Shown here: piece after piece, positions 4,784 to 7,002 of the stretch
Position numbering within the stretch: position 1 is the stretch's first letter
Layout of the letters: the number at the start of each line of letters is the position of its first letter
Origin: Stylophora pistillata
Lineage: Eukaryota
Assembly (NCBI RefSeq): GCF_002571385.2
Contig: NW_019218411.1
Location: 81,750-145,749 of the forward strand
Direction of reading: 5' to 3'
Length of the DNA stretch: 64,000 bases
The notes under the pieces: generated by a model
The model's input: the letters and a program-made list of their open reading frames with translations, nothing else
The model's database searches: none
What the model was told of the DNA's origin: nothing
Position numbers and translations under genes: made by a program

Positions 4784-7002
4784 TTAAACATATGTTCCTC
4801 CCTTCTCACTCTCGGACTGCATCACCTTTAGTATTCGTTGGACTAACAGTCGTGCAATGTCGTTATGATCTGAATCCTTTGCTGGTTGGCCTTGCTCCGA
4901 CGCGGCAGCTCCTTCAGATTGGTCATCGTCAGGTGTTACACTAACTGCATCGTCAACTTCCTTTCCACCAGACTTCGGATCTTTAACTCTTTCTTTTCCC
5001 ACTGGTTTCTCCAGAGAGATTGAAATATTTTGGTCTTTTGTAGTACTCAATATGGCCTTACCATCAGGGAAATCGGATGGAAAATCTACAGCAAAATCAC
5101 GTTGTTTAAACTTTAGTGCAACGCAAAGATCGTGGGTGTCTTTGTCTCTACTTGTGCCAGTTATTTCAAACTTTTCCTGGAGAGCGCCATAGATCTTCCC
5201 AAAAAGTTCCATGCCTTCTTTCATTGAGTACCACTGTTCTCCCTTTGTTTCTGCTTGTTGCGATGAAGTTGAAGTCCAGTGTATCTCGCCTTTCACCGGT
5301 TCACTGTAATATTTCTTCTGATCCTTTTTATTGAAAGGATTACGAAGGCGGAAAGCACTGTCCCCCTTCAGTACCTCTGTAGAAATAAATTACGATGATT
5401 TTAGTACAATAAATGAAAGATATATGTGTTATTGACCAAGCGTGAGGTCAAAATGGCTGCGCGGATATTGGCCAGGTTCATTGTTGAAAGAACGAGGTTA
5501 ATATCCAGCCATCTGATACTGATTTAATATTTAATTTCTGTTTCTTGTATATGAATCTTTTGTTGAGCCGAATTTTATTTTAGATGTTTTAGCGTCCACA
5601 CACTACCCGCCGAGACTAGCTCTGCTATTTGTGGGTAGTGCGTCATTATGCTAAGTGTCATGTCATGTCTGATTACAATAAAATACAAAATACATCTCGC
5701 CCGAACAAGCTTGGTCAATAAAGTATTTATACGGCAAAAAAATTTCGCTTTAATATGAATCAAGACTTATTTATTTCGAGACCCGCCTTTGTAAACACCC
5801 ATGAAAAGGTTTATACGCAGCAAAACCTTCATTTGCGTTTAAAATTCTCACCATGATGATTTCATTTCTTTCTTCCCGATATGTACTCGTCTTTCAATCA
5901 TGGCTTTGACAGGGAAGAGAGTGTGTTGCGTGACGAGACCAAACAGCGGCTGTGAAGGAGATAATCTATTATCTTAACACACTACTCAGCAGTGTGTTGT
6001 AACCAATAATTTCTTCGACTGGCGAGTGGGCAGCTAATCTTGCAAAGTTTCCTATAACTCGGCAAGGTCCTAATCATTAAACGTCGTGATAACGACGACG
6101 CGTTTCTGCGTCGATACATGATAAAAATATTAGTGAATACTCTAACGGTGACTGCCTGGAAAAAAAAAATAGATATCTAAGGTTTTTACCGAGTATTCCC
6201 TTCAATGAGGTTTCCTTTTCGATGACACGAATTGGCTTCACGTCCAGTGTTTCATTGTCTAGACCAACCTTCATATAAACAAAGCAGGGCTTTTCTTTAT
6301 CCAGTTGATCCCCTAAAACAGAATATATGGATCATTAACCAAACAAAATGAGACCTAACAGTGAACTTTGCACTACCCGCAGAACAACATATGTGACTAT
6401 ACAGCTATTCCTCTAGGCTCATGGCTAACTCAGTGTGACGGACAAGACATCCTTTATTCTTATATTTCTAACATGAAATTTTTATTTTAAATAGAGGGAA
6501 GGGGTGAGTGAGAATTCTATTTCGTTTGCCCCTAAATCTGGGAAACTGATTCTATCAGCCTCACAACGTTTAGATTTCACGATCGTACGGTCAAAAATTC
6601 ATCTGCTTGTATAGGTTTTAAAAATATTCAGCATGGCGAATTACCCTCCCCAAAAATTGAATCAAAAGCGAAACAAACCGAACGGAAGTGGTACTTGTAA
6701 TTGTCTTTGGCGCTTAATGTACAGCGAACACTGTCAATCCCCCAATAAGAAACTGAATTTCGTTTCTTACCGCCAGATTCTTCTGTGCTCCAAATCCCAA
6801 CTCGTCGAAGAGCATGTTCTTCGAACAACTCTTCTATATCTTCACGTTTCAAGTCCTTAAGACTACCAGTGATATACTGCACGACTGGCTGATTGGAATG
6901 AGTCCACAGACCAAACATGTGTCCTCTTACAGACTTTTTATTCGCGATTTGTCGCTTAATCTGCTTCAGTTCACCCTCGTGGATTGTGACTGTCAGGCTC
7001 AT
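4784..7002 (-). CDS. 3-exon gene (~315 aa): degenerate prokaryote-type JAB/MPN domain fused to a truncated E2/UBC(RWD)-like domain. Exons 7002-6771, 6312-6190, 5376-4784
   Basis: ATG at 7002; GTAAG and GTAAA donors, TAG and CAG acceptors; both introns phase 1, joining three ORF-track fragments into one 948-nt frame. N-terminus LTVTIHEGEL...GHMFGLWTHSNQPVVQYITG...LRRVGIWS...EVLKGDSAFR matches the GGDLFGLWT...PVxxxxxGPG...HIGEWHSH...VLPGxSPFR pattern recalled for this JAB family. C-terminus has QWYS...LQEKF...FAVDFPSDFP. AATAAA on the minus strand at 4615-4620. Confidence 0.8.
5429..5721. repeat. Dispersed non-autonomous repeat with 13-bp inverted ends, in intron 2 of the JAB-E2 gene
   Basis: TTATTGACCAAGC (5429-5441) / GCTTGGTCAATAA (5709-5721). 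Confidence 0.6.

Follow-up and report, generated by a model that had tools for sequence, protein, structure and literature searches.

Why would a coral keep a gene that joins a JAB domain without its zinc site to a second domain without the catalytic Cys of the E2s encoded beside it? An earlier note on this DNA, made from the letters alone, described a spliced 315-aa gene and read it as a maintained pseudo-enzyme in which both halves had decayed, the second being half a copy of its E2 neighbours. We examined this gene in the window (the whole 64-kb stretch of Stylophora pistillata DNA that was analysed), together with its relatives on other contigs of the coral genome, in other corals and in bacteria.

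Gene model, transcripts and conservation

Splicing the three minus-strand exons (Table 1) gives a product 100% identical to NCBI protein P0013, which is annotated as an uncharacterized protein of Stylophora pistillata. The two joints are crossed by 3 and 5 raw RNA reads (run X24), on a strand that agrees with a minus-strand gene, and both also occur in RNA contigs from runs X6, X8 and X14. RNA thus bears out the spliced gene with an intact frame that had been read from the letters, at both of the junctions where the earlier note had advised looking. Ten Logan-derived 315-aa variants (among the 15 of 18 cluster members listed) carry 2-7 residue differences and no indels. The other splice models among the 18 candidates listed were set aside, one candidate being the major RNA form. 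A minor alternative joint within intron 2 appears in one RNA contig (window 5376-5852), and the Montipora isoform P0010 lacks the stretch corresponding to exon 2. Bacterial contamination is ruled out by the spliceosomal introns, the T-box and GPCR neighbours and the poly(A) ends. The 315-aa protein has no match in Pfam, PADLOC or NCBIfam.

Table 1. Features of the pseudo-JAB gene and the adjoining E2 array, in window coordinates.
Feature	Position	Strand	Residues	Remarks
Exon 1	6771..7002	-	1-78	N-terminal half of JAB/MPN domain
Site positions in exon 1			24, 72, 74	Ser24 in place of the catalytic Glu; Ser72 and Glu74 in place of the two HxH His
Intron 1	6313..6770	-		GT-AG, phase 1; equal phase and matching position in orthologue L065
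Exon 2	6190..6312	-	78-119	C-terminal strands of JAB domain; without SxxD segment
Intron 2	5377..6189	-		GT-AG, phase 1; position common to orthologue L065
Exon 3	4784..5376	-	119-315 + stop
RWD/UEV-like core	5012..5251	-	161-240	homologous to bacterial JAB fusion tails; omega 0.20
Disordered linker	4871..5011	-	241-287	at the place of the E2 Cys loop; omega 0.79, indistinguishable from neutral
Terminal helix	4814..4870	-	288-306	closes the RWD-like domain; conserved
Divergent intergenic region	7003..8200	.		separates the gene from E2 copy 1; inferred candidate for a common promoter
E2 copy 1	8201..8650	+		intronless; bacterial-type UBC fold; Cys-His motif kept; in RNA
E2 copy 2	10618..11061	+		in RNA
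E2 copy 3	15969..16412	+		85% DNA identity to copy 2

The gene is conserved between families of corals, its orthologues including named proteins from Porites, Oculina and Montipora. HxH and SxxD are missing from all eight full-length rows of the orthologue group, the Porites and Montipora proteins among them, and also from all 24 short N-terminal matches examined; the Oculina orthologue is likewise dead. Codon models covered the window gene and five coral loci, with six sequences for the JAB part and four for the RWD core. Omega is 0.29 in the JAB part (doubled log-likelihood gain relative to omega = 1, 49.8) and 0.20 in the RWD core (49.2), well below 1 in both folded domains, as a maintained gene compared with its orthologues was expected to show; in the linker it is 0.79, which is indistinguishable from neutral (0.25). 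The closest pairs give 0.5-1.0 from few changes, the nearest having an omega near 1 in the JAB part (7 non-synonymous and 2 synonymous changes), and the distant pairs are near saturation. Spliced RNA, purifying selection and the prediction of both folds (below) uphold the maintained pseudo-enzyme; taken on its own, the 315-aa gene is a conserved pseudo-enzyme.

The orthologue is also present in ten of the 58 coral E2 loci fetched (about five sequence types). It stands head-to-head with an E2 in nine of these ten other loci and in tandem in L071; the Oculina orthologue and its E2 have consecutive locus tags. Intronless orthologues adjoin E2s in L062, L076 and L092, and the near-identical L065 has both introns; the intronless forms may reflect intron loss or transcript-derived assembly. 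In Stylophora, RNA contigs extend to 7098 on one side of the divergent intergenic region and begin at 8109 on the other.

The rest of the window holds an open frame of 238 codons that lies between E2 copies 2 and 3 (11399-12115, without a Pfam match), two tandem T-box genes with matching exons (34116-35824 and 43147-45461) and single-exon GPCR-like frames at 1-1020 and 54614-55810, the latter confirmed by Pfam; three similar frames lie upstream of the window. There is also a reverse-transcriptase fragment behind an assembly gap (2273-3400) and an integrase-like fragment (63009-63710).

The two domains and their descent

The AlphaFold2 model of the protein, built from 33 sequences (mean pLDDT 78.9), has two domains, so that both folds anticipated by the earlier note, MPN and UBC/RWD-type, are predicted. 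The first is an MPN/JAB fold, with Z 12.7 and an rmsd of 2.9 over 134 residues against archaeal Rpn11 and a Foldseek match at E 1.5e-5; its top fold matches include Rpn8/Rpn11 and BRCC36/Abraxas-type pairs. On this scaffold the JAMM catalytic residues are gone, just as had been claimed. The Glu, His, His, Ser and Asp positions align with S, S, E, gap and gap, and the protein lacks the zinc site E...HxH-x7-S-x2-D of JAMM/MPN+ enzymes; all five residues are present in each of the seven intact reference sequences aligned with it, six from bacterial loci plus P0226.

Catalytically intact HxH..D paralogues, which were worth seeking, are present elsewhere in the genome. Exon 1 alone as query found zero paralogues in the genome, and they emerged with an intact-JAB query; the gene itself is single-copy by the searches run. 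Dead JAB domains make up 37 of the 60 sampled, a sample biased by a query that is itself dead, and the JAB tree (quick method, long branches) is unable to count the losses of catalysis. The protein is like the MPN-minus pseudo-DUBs (Rpn8/PSMD7, CSN6, Abraxas/KIAA0157) in having an MPN fold without a JAMM site in an organism with intact paralogues. It differs from them in its bacterial-type JAB family and its RWD-like tail, and its partner complex is only hypothetical.

The second domain (about residues 165-315) resembles RWD/UEV structures, with Z 7.2 against FANCL, 6.9 against TSG101 and Vps37A and 6.3 against RWDD3; these values are middling, lying within the range of common arrangements where unrelated folds score alike, and come from the model of the whole protein. 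Like UEV/RWD proteins generally (Mms2 is a further example), it may have a UBC-like fold, and it is Cys-less in their sense: Cys occurs only at residues 87 and 203, and there is no E2-type catalytic Cys. The earlier note was right about the missing Cys but not about where the protein ends. It does not stop in an acidic linker; a conserved and confidently modelled helix follows (residues ~286-310), and the linker's acidity is no more than moderate, with 12 D/E against 7 K/R in 47 residues. With this helix the RWD/UEV-like domain is complete, wanting only the Cys-bearing segment of an E2.

The neighbouring E2 was modelled with pLDDT 92 and has a UBC fold, with Z 8-10 against many E2s. Its top fold matches are nearly tied (BubB Z 10.3, CBASS E2 10.1, TSG101 10.1), and Foldseek gave no match to the model at E <= 0.001. 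The E2 Cys is retained in 115 of 120 homologues. None of 135 pattern matches to E2 relatives in viral contigs was confirmed.

Was the second half copied from these E2s? The RWD-like domain shares only 16% identity with the neighbouring E2 profile over 70 columns, with an HH probability of 9.5%. A profile of the animal tails was scored on nine intact-JAB tails (seven bacterial loci, P0226 and P0233) and on 120 E2 homologues. The intact-JAB tails reached 9.5-31 bits, eight of the nine exceeding the best E2 homologue (9.8), and the three neighbouring E2s reached 6.4-9.5 bits. On these results we reject the tail as a derivative of the adjacent E2s, and the half-copy gives way to a closer kinship with JAB tails. 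An Atlas structure search agrees: the nearest models are bacterial clusters (TM 0.72-0.76, at least two labelled JAB) and not the RWD/UBC cluster (0.60), which argues that the domain was not born from a decayed coral E2. A feature comparison in the Atlas (score 0.90, 151 features in common) is a lead only, and a feature search with residues 160-245 gave no usable match.

Of 1.84 billion representatives searched, 85 proteins matched, including a JAB-plus-tail family, some members intact and many dead, as well as proteins of three to four tail repeats; the sponge Corticium is the named source of one dead member, and the intact members P0226 and P0233 cluster with bacterial sequences in the quick JAB tree. 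Intact JAB and RWD occur together in five animal-type database proteins, and the same architecture is found in the first gene of a bacterial operon (next section). Since eight of the nine intact-JAB tails outscore the E2 homologues, the Cys-less RWD-like tail is, judged by sequence, ancestral, and in animals just the protease site decayed. The proposed decay of both halves therefore falls, because the Cys-less tail was already present on intact bacterial JABs.

The bacterial operon and its coral counterparts

All nine bacterial loci share the gene order JAB-RWD, E2, a peptide of ~55-100 residues and a ThiF-type E1; eight were found with P0226 and one with the E2 profile, and of the nine, six are closely related to one another. 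ClpB comes next in at least seven of the eight P0226-found loci, and an ATPase-like gene in the ninth locus. The peptides share a hairpin-like F-x-P-x-T-G motif and G-F-(A/F) at or near the end: G-F-A lies at the end or within two residues of it in six of nine, and G-F-F is followed by one residue in a seventh. The coral peptides and two bacterial ones extend beyond this motif, so that a JAB cut would be needed. PADLOC's CBASS-type JAB, E2 and E1-E2 models match the operon genes; no CD-NTase was found among the L008 operon genes scanned, and the six genes of L008 have no Pfam match to Ubl or DUF6527. The E2 profile matches 3 of 401 genomes sampled in the phylum of L008 (the centre genome and two others, of which one is a new strong match and one a weak match). 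On an Acaryochloris plasmid, JAB-RWD and E2 are followed by insertion sequences. Two genes downstream of the operon (L008:11473 and L014:7035) start with a motif like the peptide hairpin, which may be a docking signal marking targets.

The Stylophora pistillata genome has all four gene types, clustered on contigs C112, C332, C293 and C2626. It holds six E2s, two E1s that both adjoin E2s, as well as nine or more intact JAB domains (the JAB tree includes nine). Within the 64-kb window there is no E1, peptide or intact JAB gene, and the hairpin motif is absent. Against the bacterial E1, the two coral E1s show 44% and 41% identity and the next E1-like match 28%. Three of the clusters, 122 kb in all, contain 6 copies of the hairpin motif, where 60 shuffles averaged 0.25 and never exceeded 2. 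A profile of 13 peptides, four of them coral, recovered three further coral ORFs that were unused in building it (E 1e-8 to 1e-9). The C112 peptide gene has plus-strand reads (depth ~96 vs 2) and a poly(A) end and the C112 E1 is transcribed on the minus strand, both as predicted; two JAB frames on this contig are joined by splicing in RNA.

How the domains are combined differs between corals and bacteria. In bacteria the RWD-like domain sits on the intact protease, whereas in the scanned coral regions its carriers are two dead JABs and two repeat genes, with none of the intact JABs among them. Dead and intact JAB domains share one chain in three coral open frames (C112:294186, C112:296629 and C2626:3258). 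The other dead JAB-RWD gene of the genome adjoins a peptide gene, and a divergent JAB/E2 layout like that of the window recurs on C112, there with an intact JAB.

The clusters themselves are varied. C112:290045-312950 (L043-L045) carries an E1 (303773-305062, with its Tyr at residue 315), an E2, four JAB genes (two of them tandem dead plus intact) and at least three peptide ORFs, a peptide precursor lying at 302519-302758, with one ORF that has two hairpin motifs and no G-F-F end. At C332:83346-87102 (L048) there is a compact E2, peptide and E1 trio in the bacterial order, with an ankyrin-repeat gene nearby. C293:141144-173778 (L050-L053) consists of repeated units with a peptide gene, an intact JAB, a dead JAB-RWD and four-repeat RWD genes; its JAB copy at 169294-169934 is broken, and a kinase frame (160100-161497) has RWD repeats in frame after one stop, a possible spliced kinase-reader fusion. 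A lone E2 of the same family lies at C53:449929-452242 (L055-L056) beside an apolipoprotein L-like gene (Pfam E 1e-20).

A Tyr is retained in 125 of 126 E1s, and the stretch from the zinc-site CxxC to the following helix holds no conserved Cys; we infer from the position of this Tyr that it is the counterpart of BubCD Y370. The best 120 of 1,274 E1 matches run from stony corals, an anemone, a soft coral and the sponge Oscarella on to cyanobacteria. We built a quick, unrooted E1 tree of 59 rows (the named matches, every third other match and six loci; sequences below 380 aa dropped). The named animal E1s, from sponge and cnidarians, form one clade beside bacterial ones (SH-aLRT 99) and follow the species order, which in this unrooted tree, drawn with canonical eukaryotic E1s excluded, fits one early transfer. 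By descent, the 315-aa gene very probably belongs to this predicted bacterial-type peptide-tagging system.

Several known systems come close. Bub likewise has a ThiF-type E1 whose crossover loop keeps a Tyr and lacks a Cys, according to the accessible part of its description (10.1101/2024.11.21.623953), and the neighbouring E2 finds its best fold match in BubB, about tied with CBASS E2 and TSG101. The present system differs from Bub in that the loci seen have no beta-grasp Ubl or BubE, the JAB is not fused to the E1, the E2 uses Cys and not Ser, and it occurs in animals. Type II CBASS (Cap2/Cap3) and E2-CBASS also apply E1, E2 and JAB chemistry to a substrate without the ubiquitin fold, for which Cap2 is the precedent in the available portion of that study (10.1101/2022.03.31.486616); here there is no CD-NTase among the L008 operon genes scanned, E1 and E2 are separate genes, and a ~60-residue peptide takes the substrate position. 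Bil and classes 6a-6e share the four-part set of modifier, E2, JAB and E1, and 6e has an inactive RWD-like E2 (PMC1779556). However, the accessible text of PMC1779556 gives no class that combines a JAB and RWD-like tail fusion with a peptide modifier, and compared with BilABCD, the ~60-aa peptide replaces a beta-grasp BilA and the E1 lacks the Cys.

An anthozoan 'thif family protein' of bacterial origin stands in Table 1, row 35, of PMC4878875 and may be the E1 of the coral system, going by its family label, lineage and bacterial source; in the part of that paper available, this E1-type gene stands alone, with no E2, JAB, peptide or pathway given. A literature search, with supplements outside its scope, did not turn up any paper on the operon or on its animal form, and the accessible portions of PMC8195603 and PMC11354881 do not mention either. 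The bacteria-like peptide-conjugation set of corals and sponges is apparently undescribed.

Possible roles of the protein

Our preferred reading, a tentative one held at a little short of even confidence, is that the protein is a non-cutting reader or adaptor of a predicted peptide-tagging pathway likely acquired by corals from bacteria. In this pathway an intact JAB would trim the precursor peptide after G-F-(F/A); the ThiF-type E1 would adenylate the trimmed end and carry the tag on its crossover-loop Tyr, as in Bub; and the E2 Cys would then take over the tag and deliver it to targets with no E3 involved. The RWD-like domain and dead JAB groove of the 315-aa protein would then bind the E2-tag intermediate or tagged proteins, steering or shielding the tag rather than removing it. 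The recognising and cutting jobs of the ancestral protein would thus have been split, with the 315-aa protein keeping the former. The putative ligand is likely the system's own short peptide and not ubiquitin. A binding module fits the restriction of RWD, in the scanned regions, to dead JABs and stand-alone repeats. Against the reading stands that the tag could be reached only in trans, the window being devoid of E1, peptide and intact JAB genes. As the earlier note suggested, the protein may heterodimerise with the E2s. A complex prediction for the protein, E2 copy 1 and a coral peptide, with alignments unused, gave a score of 0.13 (mark 0.34), which speaks neither for nor against such contacts.

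The protein could instead be an MPN-minus subunit, its dead JAB pairing with an intact JAB paralogue that it activates or stabilises and supplies with an RWD targeting domain, which would rebuild in trans the single-chain bacterial protein. Rpn8/Rpn11 and BRCC36/Abraxas-type MPN proteins are active/inactive pairs, and the appearance of such pairs among the top folds speaks for this role, as do the three coral frames that join dead and intact JABs and the want of RWD on any intact JAB in the scanned regions. We nevertheless consider it unlikely, though the best of the alternatives: the gene is linked to E2s and not to an intact JAB, five animal-type database proteins retain an intact JAB with RWD, and deletion of the SxxD helix region may cost part of the putative dimer face.

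Less likely still is a role elsewhere in the cell, decoupled from tagging. The head-to-head layout on C112 with an intact JAB means that the layout in the window may be a remnant of a duplicated JAB/E2 unit, and the conserved surfaces specific to the orthologues are not assigned to any partner. Against this, the linkage endures in corals whose synonymous sites are near-saturated relative to the window gene, and the other dead JAB-RWD gene adjoins a peptide gene.

It is also quite improbable that the protein is a decoy in host-microbe conflict, absorbing inhibitors or proteases that microbes direct against the intact JAB or E2. The family has many, varied members, among them the dead domains of the query-biased sample, and related bacterial E1/E2/JAB systems function in antiphage immunity according to the accessible part of 10.1101/2024.11.21.623953; however, the gene is single-copy by the searches run, and selection on it is purifying, not diversifying. 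The idea that the gene is a pseudogene in decay, or that a JAB remnant happened to fuse with a piece of an adjacent E2, could draw on the omega near 1 of the closest pair but is very improbable and largely refuted already by the spliced RNA, the intact frames of all full-length orthologues, the significant purifying selection and the same JAB-RWD architecture in bacteria.

If the protein is a reader or adaptor, it would illustrate how such a pathway gained readers after transfer. To our knowledge, all described animal E1-E2 pathways use ubiquitin-fold modifiers. We see about an even chance that corals, sea anemones, soft corals and some sponges have an extra conjugation pathway taken whole from bacteria early in animal evolution, with a short-peptide tag, a Tyr-type E1 and dedicated readers (dead JAB-RWD proteins, this gene's among them, and RWD repeats), probably serving innate immunity. 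Its parts are small and mostly single-exon, so the peptide-tagging claim is testable in vitro. The value of this gene is as a pointer to the bacteria-like peptide-conjugation set in corals and sponges, which, if true, would be a new post-translational modification for animals, a whole multi-gene pathway crossing domains and a candidate immune module in ecologically critical reef corals.
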